The notes beneath the pieces were generated by a model, which did not search any database, had not been told where the DNA came from, and saw only the letters and a program-made list of their open reading frames with translations. A stretch of DNA of 59,022 nucleotides, the filler included, from Porpidia crustulata (lineage: Eukaryota), in the NCBI GenBank assembly GCA_964255105.1. It is 5 parts of 5 records of this genome, joined end to end, with 100 filler letters (N's around TTAATTAATTAA, not from the genome) between each part and the next. Parts side by side here need not be neighbours in the genome. Positions count along the whole stretch, not along the records: positions 23,672 to 35,391 come from CAXUWE010000611.1; 4 more parts are not named here. One strand, 5' to 3'. The translations under genes were made by a program, and so were the position numbers. This document shows, one piece after another, positions 18,823 to 35,391 of the stretch (the first letter of the stretch is position 1; every line of letters starts with the position of its first letter).

Positions 18823-21800
18823 ATGTCTTTGGTAGCAGAACCTGAAAGGTCAGAAGATGTCAATGACTTTCTGCTCCGAATCCGTGAACTTGGTGACAGG
18901 CGTGACAAAGAAGATGAAGAGCGCACCAGGAAACTGGAAGAAGATTTAATTCAGAGTCGGAAAGAGAGACAAGCTCGTCGAGAGGGTCAGTCAAAAATGA
19001 CACTAAGTCATTGTCGCGAGATGATGATGATGAACCTTATGGCTAACACAACATTAGAGCGTGCAAGATCATTATCCCCAACAAAAGGATCTTCTTCCAA
19101 TACCGGCACACCCAACTCTACGCGTTCAACGATGGATACTTCTGTAGATCATGAGCCTTCAAATTCTTCTGATTACCGGATCCTCGAGACACGCGACCAA
19201 GGTCTAGACAATGACTCTCGAATTACAAATCGTGAGCCTTCAAATCCAAAATCCGAGCCTATCACACTATCGAACACCTCGTCAAACAGTGCATTGCCCC
19301 TGGCTCGTTCAGGTACGCTGTCTTGGCAACAAAGGCCAACGTCGCGAGGATCTACAAGCGGTGTGCGGAGTCGTCCTCTGTCCATGGTGGCTACGCACAA
19401 CAACGCTACAAGCTCTCCACGGGCCTGTCCTGATCCAACACCCACGAGTGGGAGCGCGGTATCGCGAGCTCAGATCGCACAGTCTCTAGGTTCGAAAGAC
19501 CCGAGTTGGTTCAAACAAACGGAAGATCGAGCAGCGGGATCAGCAGGGAATCGGAGAAACATAGGAGAAGAGGTACCAAATGTTGCCGCTCAATCCACAA
19601 ATGTGCGTTTGCCAGGCTTGTCAAGAGAAGCCTCCGCAGGAGTCGAGAGGGAGCTGAGCCCCCTTCCTGAAAGCATACGCCCGTCTTCAACTTCGAGAGA
19701 GGGTTCGATCGGAGGTATCTCCGCTACGGACCAACGATATCTCAACCCAGCTACAATTTCGTCGGCAATAGGGCTTCGGTCACTGTTGCCGAGCTTGAGC
19801 GGTCAGCGCTTCGAGCCGCCATACTCAGACACCGATTCTCCTAGCGATACCGACGCCCCTGTGGCAAGTAGAACACTGGCTATGTCTCCGGCACAAGGGA
19901 GGATATCGCCCGAACGTTTCGACAGGCCTGCTTCACCTACCAAAGGTCTCGGAGGTTTCGTACAGAGTGCTATGCTGAAAAGATCTGACAGTGTCAACAA
20001 GAGATGGAGTGCACAGCCCGGCGCTGGACTGAGTAGAGGGAATTCAATTACAAGCAATCGTAGTAGATATGATGGTTCAAGACCAAATTTGGGGAACATG
20101 AATTCTTATCGAGAAATAAGACCGGGAAATCTAAGCAGTGATAGTTCTCCAACATCAAAGTCGAGACCGGGTTCAAACCATGACAAAATTCCAGTAAGCC
20201 ATCCGCAGGCTGACAATGACGGACTAAGTACTTCATTCATGTTGGAGGACAACAAATCCGAGTCGGCCTCCGATAGCAAATTTACCAAACCAGCACTACC
20301 GTTCCAGAAGAACCCAATTACTGGATCAGAAGCACGTGAGAACAACCGAGATACAGAATTCTTGGAGAAGACGCCAACCCTAAGTCCAAATAAGAGATGG
20401 AGTCCTACTAAAGCAAGTTGGCTTGAGAACGCCATCAACAAACCGGAATCTCCTAGAACCGCTGCACCTCCACCACAACAGCCAAGCTGGATGGCCGAGA
20501 TCAGTCGAGCCAAGCAAAAACGTGGAAGTTTCGATCTCGGCAAAAGCGATACCCTTAGAGAGCCACCATTAGTCAGATCAAGTAAACCTCCTGGTATTGG
20601 AGGCCCGCCTAATGGTTTGAGAGCAGGCATAGCCAAGCAGTCTCAGGCCGGAACTTCAGACTTTGAGACTCCAGAGTCGAGCGCCGTAAAAGCCGACGTG
20701 GCTGCTAAGTCTCGGGATTCCACGACGTCTTTGCCCTCATCAAAGACACCAACAATTACGGAAGAGCGGGCAGAAACTAATGGTCGTACACCAGAAAAAT
20801 CCAACGCTATTTTTCCGCCGCCTATAAAGCCCAAGGAATCTCCAATAGACATGCGTAGGGGAACCTCTAAGCCGCTAAAGCCGAAGCCAGAAACCCCTCC
20901 GAAGAAAGATTTCAGATCTAATCTTAAATCACGGCAGGTCTCCGCAGGCAAGGAAACCAATGAAGATGCGGAATTTAAGAATGTATTTGGAAAACTCAAG
21001 CGCACCCAGACAAAAAACTATGTCGCACCAGATGAACTCAAAGATAACATCATGAGGGGAAAGGCTGGGCTTGCTTTGACAGGAGGACCCAAAAAAACCG
21101 AGCGCAAAGATGAATTTAAAGAGAGTCTACTGAAGCAGAAAGAGGCCATGAAAGCCGGAGCCTCTTCAGGAACTCCCAGGAAAATCAGTGGTAACACCGT
21201 TGGAACAGACGACCCACCAGTACCGGAAGCGCTAGCTAAGAAGAAGGGACTGATAAGATCAGAAAATGGAATGAACGATGTCAGTGCTGCAGTAGGGAAG
21301 ACACTGGGCAAGCCTGAAGTTATTGACAAGGGGGAGCGGCTACATGACAAATTCAAGCCATTACCGCTTAGTACAAAGCTCGGTATACCTACGAACGTAC
21401 AGAATGAGCGAGCTGTACAATCAAAAGTAGAAAATAGCTTCAGTGGCTCGCTGGCGACCTTGATATCGAGAGGGCCATCACCAGTCGCCGCTGGCTCAAA
21501 GGCTAGTGTGGCAATGAATCCAAGTTCCATGTCCGATTTCAAATCGTCAACATTAGATGAGACCGATGAGGCTACAGCAATTGGACCTCAGTTGACTCAC
21601 ATGACCAAAGCCAGAGCAAAAGGACCCAAGAGGCGATTGCCGAAGAATATAATTGAAAATGTCTCGGCTAGACCGTCAGCTTCTGTATCAAGTCCAGGGC
21701 CGACGGAGAGCTCGCCTAGAACGATCTCTCCGGGGAGCCAGTCTAGAGCAGACCCTTATTCAGCACCTACTATTGCTGAAAAACTTGACACGCGCCCTCT

Positions 21801-23571
21801 CGTGAGCATTTCGAATAACGGTAATCGTAAAGCGTCTCAGCCCAACACCCCTCGAAAACCGTCCACAAGTATTGCATCTCTTGATAAGGCCAAGGAGATC
21901 TCCCCTTCTTCACCAGAAAGGCCGCCGGAGGTGATTGCGAAAGCTTCACCTTTGATGAAGCCAAAATCAGGAATACTCTCTTCGAATGGCCCAAGTCGCG
22001 AAACTTTGACCTCAACTTCTGTATCTAATCCAGTCCCTTCCATACCTCCAACACCACTCAAGATTCAACGATCGCAAGCTACCAGTGCTGAGCCCACTGT
22101 GGCCCAAGAAAATCAACGGGTTAGTGCCGTAGAGGACGAGATATCTCCTCCTTCCGTACGTAATGCAGCGGCTACGTGGGAGAAGTCACCAGTTTTGAGT
22201 TCCTCGCGGCACGCTCACGTCAAATCCCCTATCAAACTGCCTACACGTAAGGATGAGGAAACGGCTTTTCAAGACGCAGGGCTTCATCGCAAAGGATCTA
22301 AAGTACCGGTTGGCCTTGGTATTCACGTTGTGAGGAATGAAATTGAGGCTTCACCACCTTCACAACATAATTTACCTATCTCCCCTGCAAAATCACCGAG
22401 AAGCCCTCCGCTACCTACTAAAAAATCCATCATCGTTGCCAACAGATCAGTTTTTAGCACCCCAGCTCCAAAAGCCAAGCCTGAACATCTGAATTCTTCG
22501 AGTCAACAGCACTCAGAAGCCGCCCGTCTGTTCGCCGAATATTTCAGTGAGGTTCCCAGTTCCAATGGAAGAGTTAACATTGACACGCAAGCGGTCCTTG
22601 CTTCAAGATCATCCAGTGCAGCTTCAAATAAAATCAAGACGCTTAGGAAGCAGATTTGGGAAGTTACTGGTGACGGCAAGTCAGTCGAGGTACCATCGCA
22701 TCAAGAGCATATTCTATTCGAAGAGAGCATGTACCTATGTAATCATGTCTTCGGCAACGCTGCTGGAATAAGGACTACAGAAGTGTACCTATGGTGTGGT
22801 GATGGGGTTCCAACTTCCGCGGCGGAAGATGCCCAATTGTTCGCGAGGAAAGTCGCCAAGGATAACAACGGCAGGCTCCTTGTCCTCCAACAGGGGAAGG
22901 AAAGTCCAAATTTCTTCGAAGCCTTGGGCGGTATTGTCATCACTCGCCGAGGAGCCAGTAGCCGAGCCGATAGGCCTTCTAGCGCTGGAGCGATATACAT
23001 GCTATGCGGTCGCCGGCACGTAGGTCAAATCGCTTTTGATGAAGTCGACTTTGACCCGCGAAGCCTTTGCTCTGGATTTCCCTTTATCGTCTCCGCACAA
23101 TTTGGGAAGCTCTATCTATGGAAGGGCAACGGGTCGAGCGCCGATGAGTTAGGTTGCGCCCGGCTGATCGGAATGGATTTGGGTCTTACCGGCGAGATTG
23201 AAGAGATTGACGAAGGAAAGGAACCGAATGTCTTCTGGGAAAGCTTTGCCAATAATAAGCGAAAAGACGCATCGACCTCGGCCGGTGACGGGAAGGCGCA
23301 GCATTGGCCTCTCAAGTCATCATGCGAAAAATACACAACGAGGCTTTTTAGCGTCGACCTTGAGACGCCGAAATCGAAATTTGGCTCTGGCTTTTCGTGG
23401 GCAAGAAGAGGGAGTGGGCCGTCCTCAGAGGAAGGGGCAACGCCAACCACACAGATCAGGGAGATTAATCCATTTACGTGTTCGGATCTGGTGGACGACG
23501 GCGTATTTGTCCTCGACACTTTCTTCGAGATCTATGTGTAAGTATCTCCTCTTGTCATCCCATCCCGGCTC
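18823..23571 (+). CDS. Large DUF4045-type / gelsolin(villin)-repeat actin-associated protein, 3'-truncated by contig end
   Basis: N-terminal DVNDFLLRIRELG..RD.EDEERTRKLEE, SPTKGLGGFVQSAM..RSDSV.KRWS and long Ser/Pro-rich linker. C-terminal gelsolin-like segments (VYLWCG, QGKESPNFFEALGG, LYLWKGNGS, VFVLDTFFEIYV). Probable in-frame intron 18986-19057; further donor at about 23539. Confidence 0.8.
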
Positions 23572-23671: not shown

Positions 23672-24096
23672 CCCCAGCCATAAACCTAAACTCCGCCTTC
23701 AACCTATCCGCCCCCGCTCAGCCGGCTCCGAAGGCAATGCCCTCAGCGCCATCCACCACGAATACGTCCACCTTCTCCAGCCTCTCCGCCGCCGACGCCT
23801 GGGGCTCTAATGACGCATGGGCGACCCCGGATCCCCCTGCTGCCGGCAAACCTCAAACCAAACCTGCAGTAGCCAAAAATGTCGAGAGCGGATTCAGCTG
23901 GGGCATGAACCCAGGATCCATCACGGCTTCCAGCAAAGGCGGGTTCAGCGCGCACCCGAGTCCGCCGAAAATCGCACCGGACGAGGATTTCGGGGGATGG
24001 AACAGCGCTGCGCCGGAGACTCCGGTTGTGCCGCCGGTCCAGAGGTCGGGCGGGGGCTTTGGGGGCGGAGATATTCTTGAGAATCCTTGGGGTTGA
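23672..24096 (+). CDS. 3' end of a gene cut by the contig start; resembles the C-terminus of Age2/SMAP-type ArfGAPs
   Basis: Open frame from the contig edge with DAWGSNDAW, GFSWG, PDEDFGGWNSA and terminal DILENPWG* (adaptor-binding-type aromatic motifs). The catalytic domain is not in the window. Confidence 0.55.
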
Positions 24097-25224
24097 GAGG
24101 ATGGCAGGGATTAGTACCGGAGAGAATGGTGTACTGAGGCAGACGAATGGGGTTTGGAGGGCATAAAGCGGACGTGATGCTTGAGATGGCTTTGCTTTTT
24201 AAGTAGATTAGAAAGGCATTCCCGGGGGTGGAGGACAGAAGCATGGTAACATGGAGTATGAAATCTATGCTTTCAATGATGCCGGGTGGGTCAATCAATG
24301 GTTGTGCACAGGTTTCAGTCCCTTTAACTCGTATTCATGTGGAATGAAGTGCCTCCTGTATAACAGCGTAACCCAATAGCGCCAATATTTGCCCGATTAT
24401 AACCGCCATCCAGCGTCTAAAAACGCCCAAAAAAACTCCCGCCCGGCCCGTAAGCTTCTGTCCTTTTGGTTACCGAAATTAGAGCTTATGCTTTTGTGTG
24501 GTCTATCCCCGAGACTGGTGTCCTCCACGCGGTTTTCCGTCGCCTGGCTTCTAGTCCGTAAGTTACAAGTCGCATATCCGTAGATGGGCAATATGTTACT
24601 GAGAGGACGACGGGCATGCGGTGCGGGTAGAAGTGACGTGTGAAGATCGAAACTCGAAACCCGAAGCGGTCGTGTGGAGATAGTGTCACTGTGGTCACTG
24701 GATTCAGAGCGGTATGTTTGAGGTCGTTGTTGGAGTTTGGGTATGTTGAGGACGCGGAGGTGACGCGCAGAGTCGAGGACTTGAGGTAGCTGGGATATTT
24801 GGATATGGATATTCATATTGAAGGTGTCGTGCGCTTTGTTGGCCGCGTAGGGGCGAGGTATGGGTTGGGTGGATTGGTTGGGGAAGCCGTCGGTGTCGCC
24901 TATGGTAGGAATGGTAGAGGGTAGTGGTGGAGGATTCAGACGAGCTACAATGATTCTGTTGGAAGAGCCTTTGTTTCACCCTGAGGTGCTGCCGAATATT
25001 TGTATTGTGGTAGTCTGCAATCCGCTATTGACCTCAGGACTCCTAGCTCCGCTTTCCGAGAGTTTGTTTGTGACATCAGGTCTAGACGTTGAGGTTCCAA
25101 GTGCCGGCCTTCTTCAGCTGGAGCCTCGCTCTATCCTTGAGGCGTCCGCACCGTTGTGGGCTCTGCCAAGTGGCGCCTCAAGTTCCGCCCGCCTTCTTCA
25201 CGCCTCCTAATATTTGAAAAGTAG

Positions 25225-25670
25225 TCACCAGAAAAAGCTCAATATCCACCACAGCAGTACCACCGCCCCAATAATCATTCCGGCGAGCTTGAAGATGGCG
25301 ACTTTGTTGCCGGACTGCGCCATGCGGCCGAGGCGGCCGGCGCTTCCTTTCAGGGTTGTGGTCATTGAGGAGAAGACTTCGGACTAAGGGGTAGTATCGT
25401 TAGCTCAGGATATGCAACACGCAAAGGGTTTAGCCTTGGTGATTGAGCGGTAGGCATACAGTATTATCGATGACATCTTGACTCCGGGCATTGTCATAGA
25501 TGTCGACCGTGACACCCCTGAGAGCAGAGACTTTGGAGGAGAGCTCCGAGAGGCGGCTATTGTTTTGCCTGTACGGACGATCACTCAGATTAGCAAGGTG
25601 CAATAACAGAGGAGGTGAGGGACAGGAAGGCCCAGGAAACGTACTGTTCGCGTTCGTATGCGTCCGACAT
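25225..25670 (-). CDS. SFT1: Golgi Qc-SNARE Sft1-like protein, 3 exons
   Basis: Spliced translation MSDAYERE..QNNSRLSELSSKVSALRGVTVDIYDNARSQDVIDNT/SEVFSSMTTTLKGSAGRLGRMAQSGNKVAIFKLAGMIIGAVVLLWWILSFFW*: short SNARE helix plus C-terminal transmembrane anchor. Not in the ORF track because of introns. Confidence 0.85.
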
Positions 25671-26069
25671 GGTGGGTGGTTGGGTATCAGAATAGCTAGG
25701 CAATATACGAAGTATCAGATAATACAGCACAGAGATAACAGGAAGGGCATTGGAGGTGGTTCTTGTGTGTACGGATCGAATGGATCAATGACTTGAAAGG
25801 TCGTCAAATGCGGCGTAATTCGATGCGTAATTTACTAGGCGCTAGAGTACCCTATACACTAGTACAGAACTGAAGCGCTCACGTGCTTTGGCGTTCAAGC
25901 CTCCTCAAAGACGATGAGATTCGCCATGGACAGCGATAATGATCAATCGTGCATCAATCATCTGCCATCTATATCATGGCAGATAACAGTCCTCATCTCA
26001 CACAAAATCGATTCCTAGCGGTTACTGCCAGTAGGCAAATTTTTTGGCGAAAAATTAGTCAGACAAACC

Positions 26070-27722
26070 TCACCAATCTATCGCTTTATTAGGATAGAAG
26101 ACGGCCAGAAGTGTCTTGTGGCTATACGTGATCATTCTTTCCCGCTCAAAGGCTTCTCCTGAGAGCTTGGAGCATGAGATGGTACGTGTAAGAGCGGGCG
26201 AGACTGATTCGCTGGTCTTCCGTCTTTTACAACTCTCCAGAACCGGGAACGAGTCGCGTCTCTTTAGAGAAAATTTCTCTATTAGTCGCTTCCCTTCTTC
26301 TTGCTCAAGTCTCATCTGATCTTGCCATTGATCAATCCGTCTCCTGTGCTCTAGATCTAGATCTACACAGCTGAGAGTATCGGATATGGCCACGCTTCTC
26401 GCTACCCATTCGTTCGGAGCCTTCTCTGTTTCCAAACTGAAAGGGTTGAGGCTATCAACGATTTTTCCTCCCCATTCTGCAATGTATTCCATATTGGGAC
26501 CGGCCATCGGATCAACTTCCTGGCTTTCGCGGTAGCCGTCATCTGGGTCATCAGCAAAATCCGACTCTTGTTCAAACTCGTTCTCAAGCAGGCCAAGCCT
26601 CCTGGCCAAGGATGTTGCTTCTTTGTGGTTTTGCTCGGCCGTGATGAGGGCTCTGGTGTTCCGTGCGCCCTTTTCAAAATGGAATAAGTCTAGCTCAATC
26701 TCAGTGAACTCGTGTGTATCCCCATTTTTGTTCTCTCGAAAGACCCTTTTGTCGTTATCGTTCTCATCACGGGTAGCGTCGAAGGCTTCTTCGGCACGGA
26801 AGAGAGTCTGCCGTGTTTGCTCCACCTCTTCTAGTATTGCGACAATCTCAGCCTTACTGAGGCCTGAAGGATACTCGCCAGAATCTTGAGGGACCAGCGA
26901 TGCAGATGCTTGACTTTCTGTGTGGTAAGAATTATTTTCCTCTTCCGGTAAGTTTTCCGGTACTGCATCATGGATCGATTCAGGTATGTGAAGCAGTCCC
27001 GCCTCGTTCAAAATTGACTCGAATGTGCTGAGCGATTGGGTTCTTAAGTGTTTAACTTCAATTTGTAAGTAGCCAAGTTCGTGATCGAGATCGCGTCTGC
27101 GCTCCTTTTGCCGGCGATATGCGGGTTCCAGCTCATCAATCTCTTGCCTGATTCTGATCTTCTCGTCGCTATTTCGGGTCGATTCGACCGAGAATTTCAA
27201 GTTTGCTAGATGGTCTTTGGTTCTTTGGACCTTCTTTGTGGCTTCTCTGACTTGCTTCTCAAGACTCTGCAACTCATGGCTTGACTGGATGACTTGTGAT
27301 AATTGCATGATTGCACTCCTTGTCAAGAGTATGGCCAGACCGTCCCGAGAACTTACAATCCGACTCGGTCCATCGGTAAACTCAGATGTGTATTCCTGAT
27401 CTTCTAGCACAGTGCGACTTCGAGGAGGCGATTTGGCTCTCGAACATGCTGCAGATAGAGTATGTATATCTGATGGTACAGGATCGACAATGTTATCCTC
27501 GGGAGAATGATCCTGGGTGAAAACAGGAGCTTCGAGTTCGGTTGGTAGTGGGGATTGTGGGTCTTTGGAAGCGTCCTTTCCCAGCTCGGGCGCTGGATTT
27601 GAATCTGAAGCTCCCAGCAGAAGCGCATGTATACGTTGAATGCCTTGCGGTGGTAACGGCCTCCATGGTGTGTGAAAAACTTTGTAGGTCTTCTGCGCAA
27701 AGGTTTGAAAGCGTTGATTCAT
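26070..27722 (-). CDS. Hypothetical acidic coiled-coil protein (module partner A1)
   Basis: Intronless ORF of about 550 aa from ATG 27722 with heptad-rich central region. Shares LAIL.T, TE.DL, R.LI.AE, ARRL.LLE, Q.SDF.DD.DDGY, W.A.S.AISD..SC and RRI.QW with 29606-31171. Confidence 0.8.
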   Translation of the reverse strand: MNQRFQTFAQKTYKVFHTPWRPLPPQGIQRIHALLLGASDSNPAPELGKDASKDPQSPLPTELEAPVFTQDHSPEDNIVDPVPSDIHTLSAACSRAKSPPRSRTVLEDQEYTSEFTDGPSRIVSSRDGLAILLTRSAIMQLSQVIQSSHELQSLEKQVREATKKVQRTKDHLANLKFSVESTRNSDEKIRIRQEIDELEPAYRRQKERRRDLDHELGYLQIEVKHLRTQSLSTFESILNEAGLLHIPESIHDAVPENLPEEENNSYHTESQASASLVPQDSGEYPSGLSKAEIVAILEEVEQTRQTLFRAEEAFDATRDENDNDKRVFRENKNGDTHEFTEIELDLFHFEKGARNTRALITAEQNHKEATSLARRLGLLENEFEQESDFADDPDDGYRESQEVDPMAGPNMEYIAEWGGKIVDSLNPFSLETEKAPNEWVARSVAISDTLSCVDLDLEHRRRIDQWQDQMRLEQEEGKRLIEKFSLKRRDSFPVLESCKRRKTSESVSPALTRTISCSKLSGEAFERERMITYSHKTLLAVFYPNKAIDW

Positions 27723-28221
27723 CTTCGCGCAGTTTTTTAATTCTCCAAAATTGCTTTTTCGCACTTGAGGGTCAGATCGTGCGGTTTCCTTCCCTAAGCA
27801 AGACGAATGAACATTGGATGCCAAGTTCAAAAACGAAATTAGAGAACGCCGCAGTCTATATGGAGGCAGCCGCTTCTAGTTTTCTTTATTGTGTTCTTTG
27901 TTCTGCAAGTCACGATAATCGGACGAATGATAACTCCGTCGATCAGAACTTTGGAAACATACCCTAGCTTTTCTTTATCCTCGGGCGTATCAATTGGTCA
28001 AGGACTGCATTGTCGAGCAGCCTCGTCTTGTCTCTTTTTTACTCTATGAAATTGAATCCGGATCCGGTCTTTCCTCCAGCAATGGTTGACTGGTTTCATA
28101 AAGCTTCGATTTCTCAACTGTATGTGCACTACAAAATCATTCATGCTCTTTCAATACATTGAAGTCTACTCTTTGCATAATTTCTCCGAAAAAAACCATA
28201 AGCATCCAACATCTGATCGAC

Positions 28222-29145
28222 ATGTCTCGAACTTACTCGCGAATAACGGCTCATAATTGGAGAAGGTCGAGAAGTAATTTGCAAGGAACAAACGTGGCCC
28301 CCTCGCCAAACACCTCATATAGTCGCCCTACGGTCTCTCCAATTGACGAAGACGAAGGATTTACCACAGCCTCACATGGAAAAGCAGTTTTTACCTTTTC
28401 GAGTCACAATAACCTGTCTTACAACCGAGATCGAGCTACTTCTCCTCTCTCGCCAATATCTGCAAGCCGTTCAAACTACATCGCGAACAAGAGGAGCTCC
28501 CGTCTGGGGAACTCCCCTCTGAATCAAGATGCTAGTAGAAGAGCCGAAGTATACGATCTTCGACACAAAACCCCCTCGATGTTCAGACATTCCGTCGTGG
28601 GTTCCGCCCGTGGGATAGTTGATCTCAAAAGCGACCGAGTGCAAAAGCTTTCGAAATACCTCTTCAAACCAGGCATGGTGGTTCGAGGAGTATGTCATGA
28701 ACAAGACTTCCATAACGGAGCTAGTGACTCGATCATGACGTTTGCTGGTAAGTATACTACCGAGAGTAAGTTCGGTCTTATCCATTCAAAGTACAGGAAA
28801 ATGATAGTGGTTGGCCTTTATGACAATCATTACCTCGCTCTTCCCTTGTACACTCACAACGGTAATGGTGTCTCCCGCAAATCCAAGCCCGACGAGTTCG
28901 TTTCCGTTCATGATCACCGATCCCGCGAGCCAATAATAAGACAGACAAGGCATAGTCCACTCGTTACCGGGGAGATGAATGAGGGCATAAATATAATAGA
29001 TCCGAAAAGTTGCGCGCACATTACCCATCCTGTGGCGAGGAAATATGACCTTCCTCTGGTGGTTGAAGGAAACTTAGACAAGGAGTCTACGGACCGTCTT
29101 TGGGATTTGTTCGACGAATCGTTACGGACCGCTGCCCCAACGTGA
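28222..29145 (+). CDS. DUF6590-like protein with PemK/MazF-like motif pattern (module gene B1)
   Basis: Ser/Arg-rich N-terminus, then a domain of about 150 aa: PGMVVR..HEQD...SKFG.IHSKYRKMIVV...HYLALPLYTHNGNG...DHR...KSCAHITHPVARKYDLP...EG. Paralogous to B2 and B3. Confidence 0.8.
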   Translation: MSRTYSRITAHNWRRSRSNLQGTNVAPSPNTSYSRPTVSPIDEDEGFTTASHGKAVFTFSSHNNLSYNRDRATSPLSPISASRSNYIANKRSSRLGNSPLNQDASRRAEVYDLRHKTPSMFRHSVVGSARGIVDLKSDRVQKLSKYLFKPGMVVRGVCHEQDFHNGASDSIMTFAGKYTTESKFGLIHSKYRKMIVVGLYDNHYLALPLYTHNGNGVSRKSKPDEFVSVHDHRSREPIIRQTRHSPLVTGEMNEGINIIDPKSCAHITHPVARKYDLPLVVEGNLDKESTDRLWDLFDESLRTAAPT

Positions 29146-29283
29146 AAAACATTTCATACGGTTGATATATGCAATCCCTTACTCGGTATATCATGGGCTT
29201 AGGAAGACGCGACAAGGTCAAAGACTTTACGCATAACACTTGGAGACATATTCAACGACCTTTGCTGCTTCCTAGTAATTGGT

Positions 29284-29565
29284 CGCGTTTGGCTATTTGT
29301 ATTATAATCTTGATAACAATTCTTTTCCGCCCCATTATCTGAATCTTCTTAATCGCTGTGTTGCATGTATATACAATCTACCGAATCATTCTTTATTTTT
29401 CACAGTAATGTGCAAACACTTTTCTGGGTACGCGTTCGGCTATTCGTATTACAATCTTGATAACAATTGTTCTTCTATTATCTAAATCTTTTTAATCGCT
29501 GTATTGCATGGACACTCTACCAAATCGTTATTTATTTTTCACGGTAATGTGCAAACACTTTTCTG
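29284..29565. repeat. Diverged tandem direct repeat, two copies of about 140 bp
   Basis: Copy 1 (29284-29426) and copy 2 (29431-29565) both run CGCGTT.GGCTATT.GTATTA.AATCTTGATAACAATT ... TTTATTTTTCAC.GTAATGTGCAAACACTTTTCTG. Confidence 0.92.
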
Positions 29566-29605
29566 TATCCTTCGATAAGACGTTAATCAATAAGAATTGA
29601 CATTA

Positions 29606-31171
29606 TCACATTGGCCGATAAGAACACGAATGCCGTCTAACAAAAGGACCGCGCTCTTCAGGACTTCCGGGGCGTTGCGGTAAGTCAAATCCCATGGTCT
29701 GCTTTCGCAAGCGTTCACTCTCCTGACGCTGAATTTCACAGAGCTCATGCCATTGATTGATCCGTCTTGCCCTCCGCGGTACTTGTTCGTGGCAACTAAA
29801 GCTGTCGGAGATGGCGATACTCTTTGCGTCCCAGAAATCTATATCATTCTCCTCAAGGTCCGGAACTCCCGTGCTCCCGGCTTCCGTGACCGTATCGAGC
29901 CATCTTTCGATGAAGTTGCGATTGGGTACGGCTGCCATCTCGTTTTCGAAGCTCAGGCTATAGCCATCGTCTACATCGTCGGGGAAATCTGATCCCTGAT
30001 CTGATCTGACTTCGAGAAGATTGAGACGTCGTGCTTGTATCAGGGTCTCTTCATAAGCTGTTTCTGCATTGATAAGATCCCTCGTTAGATTTTGCTCTTC
30101 TTCAAGATAGCAGAGGTCAAACTCTGTTCTTGTAGCTGATGTGCGGCCCTCCCTGACGAATTGATACCAATCCTCTAGCTCCATTTGGTACCTTTCCTTT
30201 CGGTTATCGAAAGCTGTTCTCAAATAATTCAGGAGATTCTGCTCCTGGAAGAATTGTTCGAGCAAATCGTGATGCGGGTTTTCTATACTTTTGACCGATA
30301 CATCGCCGTTACTGGGAGTAATTGAATTGGTCCTGCGTGATTCTTCCTCAATCTCAGCGTTGCGCTCTGTGTCCGGCTTAGGGGGACTCATCAACTCCGC
30401 ATCAATGAACAACCGCTTGAAGGACGCATTAGACACGTTTTGTAAGTATCTTAGATCTTGTTCCCCCATCCGTATCTCTTCTTTCAGAGCGTTTTTGGTC
30501 TCGTTATCTTTGAGTAATTTCAATTCTCGTTCTTCGAGCTCTAGAGTGGTCCGTATTTGCTCCTCCTCACTTTCGGTGGCTTGAGCTGTATCGCGTAGTT
30601 GCTCCACCAGCATCTCATTGATAGCAACCTGCCTTTGGATGCTTCCAAATCTCTCTTCATTGATCTCTAGCTTATACCTCGCCTCATCAACGTGCTTCAC
30701 CTCAGAAACCATTCTTTCAGTGATAAGGATCGCAAGACATTCTTTCGTGCCATCATTAGCCATGACGATTTGGCCGGGTCCTACGGCATACGGCGAGTCT
30801 TCTGATTGCACAGGCTTCGCTTCTTGCAAAGGGGTGTTGTATATTTCAGCCTGAGATCCTGTCATGTTATCGAGACCTTCATTTTGAATTTGTTTGTCGA
30901 TATACTGGTGGCTCTGTGGCAACTCAGGTCTATCGATGTGGTATGAGGAAACGTCCGAATCGCTCTTAGAGTTAGACACGTGGCCCGGAGCATGTCCATT
31001 ATAATCTTCACGCAATGAGTCTTCTTCGATGCCTTCTGATGATGGTAGTCCGGACGTTGGGTTTAGTGTAGCCGAGCTTCCCAAGTTGGCAATCTTCCAG
31101 GGTAAGCTAGCTTTGTTAATCATCTTCTGAACAGATATTCCCACCCCAGCACTCAAGCGTTGAAAATCCAT
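29606..31171 (-). CDS. Hypothetical acidic coiled-coil protein (module partner A2), paralog of A1
   Basis: Intronless ORF of about 520 aa from ATG 31171 with the same ordered motifs as A1 (e.g. TRTEFDLCYLEEEQNLTRDLINAE, QGSDFPDDVDDGY, WDAKSIAISDSFSC, RRINQW). Confidence 0.8.
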   Translation of the reverse strand: MDFQRLSAGVGISVQKMINKASLPWKIANLGSSATLNPTSGLPSSEGIEEDSLREDYNGHAPGHVSNSKSDSDVSSYHIDRPELPQSHQYIDKQIQNEGLDNMTGSQAEIYNTPLQEAKPVQSEDSPYAVGPGQIVMANDGTKECLAILITERMVSEVKHVDEARYKLEINEERFGSIQRQVAINEMLVEQLRDTAQATESEEEQIRTTLELEERELKLLKDNETKNALKEEIRMGEQDLRYLQNVSNASFKRLFIDAELMSPPKPDTERNAEIEEESRRTNSITPSNGDVSVKSIENPHHDLLEQFFQEQNLLNYLRTAFDNRKERYQMELEDWYQFVREGRTSATRTEFDLCYLEEEQNLTRDLINAETAYEETLIQARRLNLLEVRSDQGSDFPDDVDDGYSLSFENEMAAVPNRNFIERWLDTVTEAGSTGVPDLEENDIDFWDAKSIAISDSFSCHEQVPRRARRINQWHELCEIQRQESERLRKQTMGFDLPQRPGSPEERGPFVRRHSCSYRPM

Positions 31172-31618
31172 AATACAGTAACGAGAGATGCGGTAGGCGT
31201 TTGTTTGCAAAATTCTTTCTTGTTATCGTCTCTGTCGCGCAGCGAGAAAAGTCCAGAAGTTTGACTGAGAAACTAGGCTTCACGAGCCATAATATGGGCG
31301 ACAATCAAGATCCTTTATCCCATCTACATCCAAAAATAAACAGCGAAGATTGGGTTCTTTCAAGGCTGCTCAGTACCTCGATCAAAGATTAGCTTGTCCT
31401 TCGACCTTGTTTCGTAGCAACGGATTTATGCTGTCTTTGTTCCATCTGTGTTCCCTTTCGCTCTTCATACGTTCTTTCAGAAATCCCCAATAAGGATAAC
31501 CTACAACTATAATAAATCACAACAGACGAGTCGAATTCGTGACATACAGAAAACTTGACGTTGGATCAAATACGCTCGAAGTTTGGCAAACATTTACCAT
31601 AACAACAAAAACATATCA

Positions 31619-32473
31619 ATGTCTCGAAACATTGCAAGAAGTAGCGTAGGCGGCAGTGGTTCTCGGAGGGACTCGACAGTCCCTCAGCCTGCTCCACCGC
31701 CATCGTCTTCTTCATCAGGCGGATGGAGGGCCAAATTCGCTCAGAGTGCTTCGCAAAAGCCGATGTCACCAGTCGCCGAAACCGATGGCTTCGAGACCGT
31801 GAAGTACAGTAGGGGTTCGAAGGCGAGCGTCGCTGGCGCCGCAAGATTGCACGTTTACGCGGAGAGGCCCAAGCCAAGCTCAATCTACAAGGAGTCCTGC
31901 ATCCCAGTGGCGGATAGAGATTCAGCACTCATGGCAGTACAAAACAGCAAAGGGGTAAAGATACCGAAAGAGAAGTACCATCCCGGTATGCTCATCCGCG
32001 CAGCAATGCATGAGCCAGACCTCAATCAAGGGGGCGCGGCTTCCTCTAATATCACCACCACGACCGTTGCCGACGCATACAGGACCGACTCCAAGTTTGG
32101 ACCTATTCACACAAAGGTACGCAAAGCGATCATCATTGCCCTATATCAAGACCACTACCTCGCTGTCCCTCTCTTTACCCACAATGGCAACGGGCTACTG
32201 CACAAAGTCAAGCCAGAGGAGTTCATCTCTGTCCGCGATCATCGACATCACGGCAACTTCAAAACCCAGTCGAAGCATGGCGTTTTGGCGACGGAACATC
32301 TCAACGCTGGCGTTAAACCACTGCACGAGAAGTCGACGGCGCATATTACCTATCCGATCTCGAGGAAGTATGATCTTCCAGTCGTACATGAAGGTCATCT
32401 GGCTACGGAGGCGACCCACCACCTGGTCAAACTCTTCAATATGTATGCACCAAAGGCTACTGCCAGGCCTTGA
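31619..32473 (+). CDS. DUF6590-like protein with PemK/MazF-like motif pattern (module gene B2)
   Basis: Starts MSR like B1. Domain PGMLIRAAMHEPD...SKFGPIHTKVRKAIII...HYLAVPLFTHNGNG...DHR...KSTAHITYPISRKYDLPVVHEG. Confidence 0.82.
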   Translation: MSRNIARSSVGGSGSRRDSTVPQPAPPPSSSSSGGWRAKFAQSASQKPMSPVAETDGFETVKYSRGSKASVAGAARLHVYAERPKPSSIYKESCIPVADRDSALMAVQNSKGVKIPKEKYHPGMLIRAAMHEPDLNQGGAASSNITTTTVADAYRTDSKFGPIHTKVRKAIIIALYQDHYLAVPLFTHNGNGLLHKVKPEEFISVRDHRHHGNFKTQSKHGVLATEHLNAGVKPLHEKSTAHITYPISRKYDLPVVHEGHLATEATHHLVKLFNMYAPKATARP

Positions 32474-33681
32474 TAACGATCCTGTCCCTTATCTCTTAAA
32501 TGTCATAGTCAAAATGTTTGAAAACTTTCATGCTTTAGCCATGTATCCCTACACGTATATTACTAAGAGCTGCATATAATTTGTGTTTATTGATTTTGAA
32601 AGGAAAGTAAATGGGCCTCGGCTCGTCCACCCAACGGGCAAAGATATCGGTGGTGTAACATCATGATTTGTCCAGAGCATCTGAGAACTAATCTACTTAT
32701 CCAATTGAAATGTTAGAATTACCTTGCATTGAATTCCATTTCGTGCGTTGAATTCAAGCAGGTTTCACACTTACATACATAGACCACATCGCATACTGCC
32801 ATGTCTATGCCGAGACGAACGTACTCGATACCTTAGATCATCGTCTCTGAATTCGATCAAATCACTTCGAATTTCTCCCTCGATCGATTCGGAACGATCT
32901 TCTTTGTGTGTTCGACATCAAAGACATGAAGAGAATTACTTCTTTGGGATACCCTAGCAGATATTGGCAATACTCGTATTGCTAAAGCAAGCTACACTGT
33001 ACCATGAGTTCTGCACAAGAAGATTACCTAGATAGAAACTAGCAAGTGGTCCACAAATTCTACTTTGATAGGACACCTCGACAATAATATAATACTAGGA
33101 TTTCTAATGTAGCCTCTGAAAACGCGAAAGGCCGATGATATGCCCTAATCTGCGTCCTCGGAAAAATCGATATCATTGTTTGAACGAGCGTGGCTCGTTG
33201 ATTTGCTGAGACGTTCAATGGTTCATGCTCTGTTTCCTAAAGCGTTTGTTTTTTTGCAGCGGAAGCCATCACCTAGGTCGTGAAGAGGATGGAAAGTTGG
33301 AACAGCAGATCTGACCATTTGGCAGATGTTCTCGATGGAAACGATATCGTCCATGTTCGGACAATGCTGTTGAGGATCCGAATTATCTATGAGTATGGTA
33401 GAGGCGGACAAGAAGACTTATACTGGGATGGCCGCAAGGCGACTGTCCTACGACTGATTCAGGGTGTGTCTGTCTGTCCTCTCTTTGTACAGTGGCTATT
33501 GTTTATTCGATGAGAGGCAATGTCGTACTCTCAGCAATCTATGCTGGTCATATAAAAGGATGTTCCAATTCACCTTTCAGCTTTTACATCACGTAAAGCT
33601 ACAGTCATCCAAGCCAACCTTGAAGTTTCTGAAGAATATCTGGGATATCAAAACTTCCAACGGCGATTTTAATTTTCAACT

Positions 33682-34686
33682 ATGACGGAACGAAATTTTT
33701 CCTGCAGCACCACAACAGGCACCGCCTCCCAAAGACTCCGGCAGGCATCACAGAATTACAAGTATGCCCAGGGGAGATCTCACGAGAACTCGAGCCAGCA
33801 GGAGAACTGGAGGAGCAGGCAAGGTTCCGCGATCAATAGCGGAAAATCTAGCATCGTCGACCAAGATGGCTTTACCACGGTGTCAAGTCGAAGACAAAGC
33901 TCGACAGGAAATTCTGTCACGGCTAATCAGAAATTGCGACGTTCGATCCCGATGATGCTTCCAGCCAATACTCACGGCACGCTACTCCAAGCAGAGACTA
34001 TGGTCTGTCCAGCGAGGAAGGGATCCGTCCTGAGCCGTGCTGCAGTGGAGCGTGGATCCGTGTATGCATCTTCGGGCAAAGCCGATTTCAAGCAATCTGG
34101 ATACAATCGTCGCGCCAGCATGTCCGAAAAGACCAGAGCATCTTATCTGACGAAAGATATGTTTGCACTCGGCATGATCATTAGGACAGTCCACCACGAG
34201 CCCGACTTTACCGAAGGCTTCCTCAACGCAATGATCGCTGACGAGTACAGAACCGAGTCGAAATTTGGCCCAATCTGCTCAAAGTACCGCAAGATGATCG
34301 TTGTCGTCTTATATCGTGACCATTACGTGGCCATCCCAGTTTATTCGCACAACGGCCGAGGGTCCGAGAAGCGGATCGACGCCGACGAGTTGGTGTCTGT
34401 GCAAGACCACCGGCTGCCACCCGCTGTGTACCAGACCCAATCTCCACACACACCGCTCGTGACGGAGCAGATCAACACCGGCGTGGATCTCTGGCATATC
34501 AAGAGTGCGGCACATTTTACCTATCCGGTGTCCCGGAAATACAACCTCCCAGTGATCGTGGAAGGCACGATCGGGCAGGTTTCTTTGGCAAAGCTGACGG
34601 CACTGATGAACACCTACAGTGGCATGGCTCATACAGGTCTGCTTAATGACTTCATTCCATATATGAGGTCAAAATCATTTGCTTGA
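33682..34686 (+). CDS. DUF6590-like protein with PemK/MazF-like motif pattern (gene B3, no intact partner)
   Basis: 334-aa ORF. Domain LGMIIRTVHHEPD...SKFGPICSKYRKMIVV...HYVAIPVYSHNGRG...DHR...KSAAHFTYPVSRKYNLPVIVEG. Confidence 0.82.
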   Translation: MTERNFSCSTTTGTASQRLRQASQNYKYAQGRSHENSSQQENWRSRQGSAINSGKSSIVDQDGFTTVSSRRQSSTGNSVTANQKLRRSIPMMLPANTHGTLLQAETMVCPARKGSVLSRAAVERGSVYASSGKADFKQSGYNRRASMSEKTRASYLTKDMFALGMIIRTVHHEPDFTEGFLNAMIADEYRTESKFGPICSKYRKMIVVVLYRDHYVAIPVYSHNGRGSEKRIDADELVSVQDHRLPPAVYQTQSPHTPLVTEQINTGVDLWHIKSAAHFTYPVSRKYNLPVIVEGTIGQVSLAKLTALMNTYSGMAHTGLLNDFIPYMRSKSFA

Positions 34687-35391
34687 TCCGGGTTGATCGC
34701 AGACAGCATCCGGAGTCGTCAGTAATGCCGAGAGCGCTTGCTGCAAATGGCCGAAATGGAAAGGCGTCCCACAAAAGTGCGATCGATTTTTAGCGTCACG
34801 TAAACTTATGATATATATGATTTCCTTGGATTCTCTGTCAGATTAAGATAGTTCCCGCATACAAACAAACCGGTCAAAATCAAATTTATCTGTTTTCAAA
34901 CCAGAACATTGGAAAAAACAATATATGCAGAGCATCTTCTTCCAATTGCCCGAAATAAAAATGTGGACTACATAGTAAGTAAGTGGGAAGAAATTGCTAT
35001 ACATGAATAATACCAAGTAGTGTATCGCAATTGGTTGGCAAGAAATCCTATTTGGGAAAACAGCACAGAAACCATAGATCTAGAGACGAAATATACGATA
35101 GGGTAGTCCTGCATTATGCGGAGGGATTAAGAGCTTAAAGAATTTGAGAGAGAGAAGATTCAGTGCATGATGACTTACAAGGTGACAGGGTCTTCGAGCG
35201 AGTGGAGGTCCGTGCGTCAAATAAAGTAGGCATGCCCGGCATGGGGGGGCATGGTCTATCAGATTTCCACTCAACAACATTTGTATATATAAGACATTCG
35301 TTTGAAGGGTAATTGATTGGACTACAACACGTCTCTCTGCATCGATCAGTACAAACAATGAAGTCCTACCTCCCGGACCACGAAGGATACC

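Follow-up and report, generated by a model that had tools for sequence, protein, structure and literature searches.

MazF, Kid, and CcdB toxins are considered to be prokaryotic and plasmid proteins. In Escherichia coli MazF (EcMazF), Arg29 acts as the general acid/base of catalysis and Thr52 steadies the transition state, while in MazF-mt3 Ser50, the residue next to the counterpart of Thr52, also lies near the scissile phosphate, as described in the accessible part of PMC11394972. An automated survey from 2008 reported, in the accessible part of its text, no MazF-type sequences in eukaryotes, just ParE-like and Doc/Fic-like ones (PMC2446400). Here we describe three paralogous genes, B1, B2, and B3, in a stretch of 59,022 nucleotides from Porpidia crustulata (GCA_964255105.1; hereafter, the window), which joins five parts of five records of this genome with 100 filler letters between each part and the next; the genes lie in the part at positions 23,672 to 35,391 (CAXUWE010000611.1). 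Each of the three encodes a C-terminal DUF6590 domain (PF20233), and what is new is that this fungal domain, so far undescribed as a native eukaryotic family of this kind, is predicted to share the fold of the bacterial toxin MazF. The literature searched contained no account of a native MazF-fold family in eukaryotes (structure-database annotations lay outside that search), and neither "DUF6590" nor "PF20233" occurs in any paper of that literature.

The evidence for the fold comes from structure prediction for the B1 domain, whose 169 amino acids (aa) provide the residue numbers used throughout. An AlphaFold2 (AF2) model, built from an alignment of 115 family sequences that includes the three window domains (alignment A3, also the basis of all conservation counts given below), reached a predicted local distance difference test (pLDDT) score of 93.0 and a predicted template modelling (TM) score of 0.87; pLDDT was 92.3 to 93.0 across the five models. 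The model contains strands at residues 14-23, 65-72, 88-92, 109-114, 126-128, 133-136, and 141-147, a hairpin of 41-44 with 47-61, and a C-terminal helix at 149-165. Comparison of this model with 48,161 solved chains by VIA-align, without a Foldseek prefilter, placed MazF, Kid, PemK-type, or CcdB toxins at all of ranks 1 to 11, with Z scores from 11.1 (root-mean-square deviation 2.0, 102 of 111 residues) to 8.2; rank 12 was the type III ribonuclease (RNase) toxin CptN (Z 7.6), and the first unrelated fold was the UvrD Tudor domain (Z 5.8). RNases occupied ranks 1 to 9 as well as 11 and 12, and the superpositions extended over almost the full length of the toxin chains and took in the C-terminal helix (102 of 111, 107 of 115, and 97 of 107 residues). 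MazF-type proteins likewise filled 28 of the 30 rows listed by Foldseek for the PDB, with probabilities of 0.97 to 1.0 and target TM scores of 0.52 to 0.66, and a bacterial PemK/MazF cluster appeared at rank 16 in the ESM Atlas (score 0.87), which we take as a lead only. Because these near-whole-chain matches stand clear of the generic SH3/Tudor background, the MazF/CcdB fold is well supported for the predicted model, and the DUF6590 domain very probably has it: the model combines an SH3-like barrel with a C-terminal helix and superposes on CcdB/MazF superfamily members over most of the chain. A first-pass annotation of the window had proposed a MazF fold for this domain, and the top structural matches of the model, MazF/Kid/CcdB-type proteins, agree with that proposal.

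The homodimer that the same annotation had envisaged is predicted as well. When the ESMFold2 complex tool was given two copies of the B1 domain, without alignment A3, the interaction prediction score from aligned errors (ipSAE) was 0.69 (0.71, 0.69, and 0.69 in separate runs) versus 0.42 for the best control, with at least 86% of contacts shared among runs and a partner pLDDT of at least 80. This score exceeds the tool's mark; among proteins solved as one-chain pairs 21 of 30 attain that mark, and among those solved as single chains 0 of 23 do. A homodimer of the kind typical of the CcdB/MazF superfamily is thus predicted. The predicted dimer is symmetric: strand 130-134 of one copy pairs with the same strand of the other across the dyad (residue 132 with 132, and 133 with 134); other parts of the interface are the β2-β3 turn (59-67), residues H21-Q23, and the C-terminal helix (152-168), and H65-Y66 also fall within it. 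In MazF-mt3, the last helix belongs to the dimer interface, according to the accessible text of PMC11394972.

B1, B2, and B3 appear as ordinary members of DUF6590, a fungal family of unknown function. The Pfam profile matches B1 (E 2.8e-12, 47.3 bits) and B2 (E 2.4e-9, 37.8 bits) above its cut-off of 27 bits, and it matches all 115 members of the family alignment, the B3 domain among them. In a three-way alignment, B2 and B3 are 40% and 37% identical to B1 over the whole protein, respectively, and the B2 and B1 domains are 48% identical. The first-pass annotation had listed an ordered set of motifs for the three paralogs in a stretch of B1 (28640-29120) that indeed sits within the C-terminal domain, and every one of these motifs was recovered in B1, B2, and B3: PGM or LGM with a hydrophobic strand, HE.D, a variable loop, and K.RK with four hydrophobic residues; then HY...P.[YF][TS], HNG.G, DHR, and KS.AH.T.P..RKY; and finally EG, followed by the predicted C-terminal helix. 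An exhaustive phmmer search of 1.84 billion proteins yielded 474 representative clusters (50% identity) at E≤0.001 and 269 at E≤1e-10; the conservation seen here goes far beyond chance. DUF6590 clusters in the ESM Atlas are 100% eukaryotic and mostly from Ascomycota, and the closest named relatives of B1 come from lichen-forming ascomycetes (i.e., Letrouitia and Brigantiaea assemblies). A low-sensitivity search for prokaryotic relatives, with two peptide patterns over genome contigs, returned 20 stretches, none of which was confirmed. One protein of 6329 aa (P0050; K/E/I/N-rich, with FN3-like repeats), hit at 21 stretches in the phmmer search, was dropped as a family member; its repeats match weakly near the HNGxG...P.EF segment (26 stretches, each of at most 8.4 bits). 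Through these weak repeats P0050 gains a high summed score against a DUF6590 query, and it is thus a trap for family counts.

B1 and B2 each lie divergent from a gene for an acidic coiled-coil protein, A1 and A2, respectively (Table 1), whereas the B domains are basic, with isoelectric points (pI) of 8.0 to 9.7 in the window, a family median of 9.1, and values above 8 in 95 of 115 members. The two A proteins are paralogous to each other (28% identity, E 9e-30), and a 550-aa protein (P0289) is 100% identical to A1. Searches with A1 and A2 found no Pfam family and no named relative; a word-indexed search gave 11 relatives, and the look-alikes in the ESM Atlas are unnamed Ascomycota clusters. In the A-family alignment, a coiled-coil middle is followed by the invariant motifs QESDFxDDxDDGYxxS, ISDxxSC, and RRIDQW, and the A1 segment from about aa 385 to 460 contains QESDFADDPDDGY. 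The family also has GPSRI..S.DG close to the N-terminus. A metagenome scan gave 37 related loci, of which 8 had too little upstream DNA and 29 were assessable; in 25 of these 29, B has an A homolog immediately upstream on the other strand. The 29 loci contain much redundancy and reduce to about 8 locus types, 7 of which show the pairing. The two genes have also diverged together (a B1 ortholog of 63% identity occurs with an A1 ortholog of 45%, and a B2 ortholog of 75% with an A2 ortholog of 40%). Given this pairing in related loci and the consistent orthology of both genes, A and B form a conserved, co-diverging divergent pair in this lineage. At one locus (L015, 7987-8863), the second A-B pair is followed by a third A-like copy, beyond which the contig stops with no third B reached; the match to this copy falls into two pieces, suggestive of an intron or a frameshift. 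Similarly, distant B copies in L032, L035, L037, and L039 match as two to three pieces, which suggests introns or decay.

With regard to a possible active site, the PemK alignment carries the motifs R-P-h-h-V-h-S and P-h-[TS]-[ST] (h, hydrophobic), and the DUF6590 alignment carries K-x-R54-K-M-I-V-V and P70-L-[YF]72-[TS]73-H-N-G-x-G. Residue 54 is Arg in 114 of the 115 family members, residue 73 is Thr in 92 and Ser in 22 (i.e., Thr or Ser in 114 of 115), and Gly78 does not vary (115 of 115). R54 falls on R29 of EcMazF and P70 on P50 in four of the five local runs of hhalign, all four of them non-significant (P 0.057 to 0.14). The extended alignment, between a domain-only profile and a broad PemK profile (EcMazF, ChpB, 18 plasmid PemK/MazF toxins from bacteria and one archaeon, and six further database sequences), is collinear from β1 to the C-terminal helix, with G13 on G10, E144-G145 on K91-G92, and helix on helix; it pairs Tyr/Phe72 with Thr52 and Thr73 with Thr53, an offset of one residue. 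Since these alignments put R54 on R29 and Thr73 one residue off, Arg54 is a plausible counterpart of the catalytic Arg of MazF, and the equivalence of the Thr is less settled; the equation of this Arg/Thr pair with that of MazF, made in the first-pass annotation, is thus borne out in part at most, with the Arg a plausible match in non-significant alignments and the Thr displaced. The strand in the model ends at residue 72, which makes Thr73 the first loop residue, and the one-residue shift could be absorbed in space.

The explanation that we tentatively favor, as possible rather than probable, is that the DUF6590 domain is dimeric and, in the way of MazF, binds and cleaves RNA by means of Arg54 and the Thr73-His74 loop, with the acidic A protein as its regulator. 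The domain would be a fungal form of the MazF/Kid/CcdB fold, diverged and larger but still a small SH3-like β-barrel shut by the C-terminal helix, and would form a symmetric homodimer through strand 130-134, the β2-β3 turn, and this helix. Beyond the predicted fold and dimer, the conservation of residues, and the pairing of genes, we infer that the domain may bind and cleave single-stranded RNA without metal, in the manner of MazF, with Arg54 as general acid/base, with the Thr/Ser73-His74-Asn-Gly-x-Gly loop stabilizing the transition state, and with the long variable β1-β2 loop gating the site. Each B gene of lichen-forming fungi would have a divergent promoter region in common with an acidic coiled-coil A gene, and the A protein would be the binding partner or regulator of B, possibly by way of its invariant acidic QESDFxDDxDDGY segment; it might inhibit B through charge mimicry, like MazE.

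Several observations weigh against this reading. A common fold by itself demonstrates no function; all Foldseek E-values exceed 0.001 (the best being 0.013), and the dimer score may reflect the complex tool's memory of solved MazF dimers. By sequence comparison, DUF6590 is not detectably kin to MazF. The PemK profile (PF02452) matches 0 of the 115 family members at E≤10, a threshold at which Pfam yielded DUF6590 plus scattered noise and nothing else; the family profile has no match among PDB sequences at E≤10 by hmmsearch, and a phmmer search of the PDB with B1 gave chance-level matches alone (Trp synthase, E 0.35). When L001 was searched for PF02452, the sole matches were the E. coli mazF and chpB loci. 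All hhalign comparisons were non-significant (probability 0.2 to 1%, P 0.057 to 0.28): alignment A3 gave a probability of 0.8% (P or E 0.069) against the single EcMazF sequence, taken from the K-12 record, and of 0.2% (P or E 0.28) against a narrow MazF alignment (A4), and the domain-only profile gave 0.4% (P or E 0.14) against A4 and 1% (P or E 0.057) against the broad PemK profile. The run of A3 against A4 took a different, non-collinear register and forced global runs aligned just 12 end residues; the former was set aside as non-collinear and insignificant, the latter as nonsense. Profile-profile comparison thus provides no significant sequence link to MazF. Within the domain, Thr73 is at Pro+3 and the catalytic Thr/Ser of PemK/MazF is at Pro+2, and a set of near-invariant polar residues has no MazF counterpart, i.e., H21 (kept in 97 of 115), E22 (104), H65 (92), Y66 (108), H74 (97), E87 (104), S90 (107), D93 (114), R95 (112), R135 (105), and Y137 (105); K52 (102) and H128 (94) are kept as well, likewise without a counterpart. 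These extra residues may point to a different site or ligand, and to judge from this conservation the site, if present, is larger than or different from that of MazF.

The gene pairing has exceptions, too. The L026-L029 loci, which represent one locus type with a B gene 39% identical to B1, have no A upstream, and the upstream genes of L027 are pieces of a GMC oxidoreductase. Upstream of the intact B3 gene, a search of positions 32400-33750 found no A remnant (best E 0.43). Because A is absent at B3 and at L026-L029, it is no obligatory antidote. A B3-like copy (56.5% identity) has A upstream in L005-L011, L013, and L014 (at 6971-10280 in L005), which suggests that A was lost or moved at B3 here (32474-33681) and that B3 stayed intact.

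The main rival explanation is that the domain is a non-catalytic binding module; a His/metal site comes next, and artefact or convergence comes last. As a binding module, which we regard as a doubtful but serious possibility, the dimer would have kept the MazF/CcdB fold and would bind a protein (as CcdB does gyrase), RNA, or A without cutting, and the conserved Arg, His, and Asp residues would form a recognition surface. Harder to reconcile with mere binding are Arg54 and Thr/Ser73, each conserved in 114 of 115 members and collinear with the catalytic pair of MazF, and the RNases that make up nearly all of the closest structural matches; the basic charge of the domain, as expected of a nucleic-acid binder, is also a point for the RNA-cleaving reading. 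It is unlikely, by our estimate, that the domain is instead an enzyme which has another active site on the MazF scaffold, with a His/Asp/Glu set (H21/E22, H65, H74, D93-H94-R95, and H128) that binds metal or provides His-based catalysis on RNA or another substrate. The conservation of H21, H65, H74, and H128 given above, together with that of H94 (82 of 115) and H106 (88 of 115), speaks for such a site, as does that of E22, D93, and R95, none of which is kept in fewer than 104 of 115. The first-pass annotation had itself offered a modified active site or metal binding by the invariant His residues as an alternative. On the other hand, the fold members found by Foldseek and VIA-align include no known metalloenzyme, and H21-Q23 and H65-Y66 lie within the predicted dimer interface, so that their role may be structural. 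Finally, a convergent resemblance or modelling artefact, with DUF6590 as a generic SH3/Tudor-like barrel unrelated to MazF, is very improbable given matches over nearly the whole chain and the C-terminal helix at 2.4 to 5 Z units over the first unrelated fold, and given the uniformly confident AF2 models.

Should the favored RNA-cleaving reading hold, it could be carried further, although we consider this extension quite unlikely: A-B pairs may be a eukaryotic, nuclear-encoded counterpart of toxin-antitoxin systems, in which an RNase dimer of B is held in check by the QESDFxDDxDDGY segment of A and which duplicated and diverged as pairs in lichen-forming fungi. Such a system might serve in genetic conflict (e.g., in spore killing, allorecognition, or defence against mycoviruses) or in RNA decay induced by stress.

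Table 1. Features of the A and B genes and of the B1 domain, with positions along the window.
Feature	Positions	Strand	Description
Gene B1	28222-29145	+	307 aa; N-terminal region (about aa 1-135) basic and disordered; C-terminal DUF6590 domain with predicted MazF fold
B1 DUF6590 domain	28636-29142	+	169 aa; predicted SH3-like barrel and C-terminal helix of MazF/Kid/CcdB type
Arg54 codon	28795-28797	+	Candidate counterpart of MazF catalytic Arg29
Thr73 codon	28852-28854	+	Candidate counterpart of MazF Thr52 or Thr53; the H-N-G-x-G loop comes next
Gene B2	31619-32473	+	B1 paralog; domain 31943-32470; open frame 31583-32473
Gene B3	33682-34686	+	B1 paralog; domain 34147-34683; no A gene upstream
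Gene A1	26070-27722	-	550 aa, acidic (pI 5.1), coiled-coil, divergent from B1, no Pfam family
Gene A2	29606-31171	-	521 aa, acidic (pI 4.7), A1 paralog, divergent from B2
A1-B1 intergenic region	27723-28221		499 bp; presumed shared bidirectional promoter
A2-B2 intergenic region	31172-31618		447 bp; presumed shared bidirectional promoter

The open frame of B1 spans 28159-29145, and its likely start, the ATG at 28222, was chosen by comparison with two relatives (P0002 and P0008). In an AF2 model of full-length B1, the domain is confident and aa 1-135 have pLDDT values of 41 to 58, i.e., are predicted to be disordered; this N-terminal region is basic (pI 10.9). It carries a motif, G-[FWY]-x-[TS]-[VAI] (D/E-G-F-T-T-A/V), that is kept in B1 (28357-28371), B2, and B3 and is present in 15 of 95 family representatives with an N-terminus of at least 60 aa, 9 of which have exactly GFTTV. 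In the full-length model the N-terminal region, GFTTA included, has pLDDT below 60 and is not predicted to dock in cis onto the domain, and the GFTTA-type motif may be a linear interaction or targeting motif. By its gene content, the window reads as an ordinary fungal chromosome; its further genes include ones for a DEAD-box helicase, a protein kinase, an HbrB-like protein, and a DUF4045/gelsolin protein. The last of these (18823-23541, plus strand), which is unrelated to the DUF6590 finding, is a 1572-aa protein joining DUF4045, DUF7904, and a gelsolin repeat.

Were DUF6590 to prove an RNase of MazF type, a testable function would become available for a large family of fungal proteins (474 clusters), its members would represent a new class of fungal RNA-cleaving regulators or conflict elements, and their conserved pairing with the acidic A proteins could serve as a model, in eukaryotes, of regulation resembling that of toxin-antitoxin systems. 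A non-catalytic domain would still show eukaryotic re-use of a toxin fold.

Among known systems, the type III toxins ToxN, AbiQ, and CptN have structural scores much below those of MazF and are neutralized by RNA repeats, of which none were seen here, though no search was aimed at such repeats. CcdB, the gyrase poison of the F plasmid, is a non-nuclease without the Arg/Thr pair and scores below nine RNase members of the fold, and nothing in the B data points to gyrase. The closest comparison is with MazF, PemK, Kid, and ChpB (PF02452), from which DUF6590 differs in being eukaryotic (fungal) and nuclear-encoded and in lacking detectable sequence similarity, with its Thr at Pro+3 rather than Pro+2. 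Its domain has 169 aa, with insertions at about 24-46 and 93-125, where MazF has about 110 aa, and in B1 the domain follows a disordered N-terminal stretch of about 135 aa in the same protein. Nor do the A-B pairs match a type II toxin-antitoxin module such as MazF with its partner, in which a small, co-transcribed upstream antitoxin carries an AbrB/ribbon-helix-helix-like DNA-binding domain: the upstream neighbor of B is a divergent 520-550-aa coiled-coil protein that belongs to no Pfam family and is absent from some B copies. Like the MazF group, DUF6590 is predicted to form a homodimer that uses the C-terminal helix, and as in MazF it has a long flexible β1-β2 loop (residues 21-40, pLDDT 64 to 73), a near-invariant Arg where the second core strand begins, and, behind a conserved Pro, a Thr/Ser where the third strand ends. 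A basic B likewise stands beside an acidic partner gene, which parallels the charge complementarity between MazF and MazE described in the accessible part of PMC11394972.
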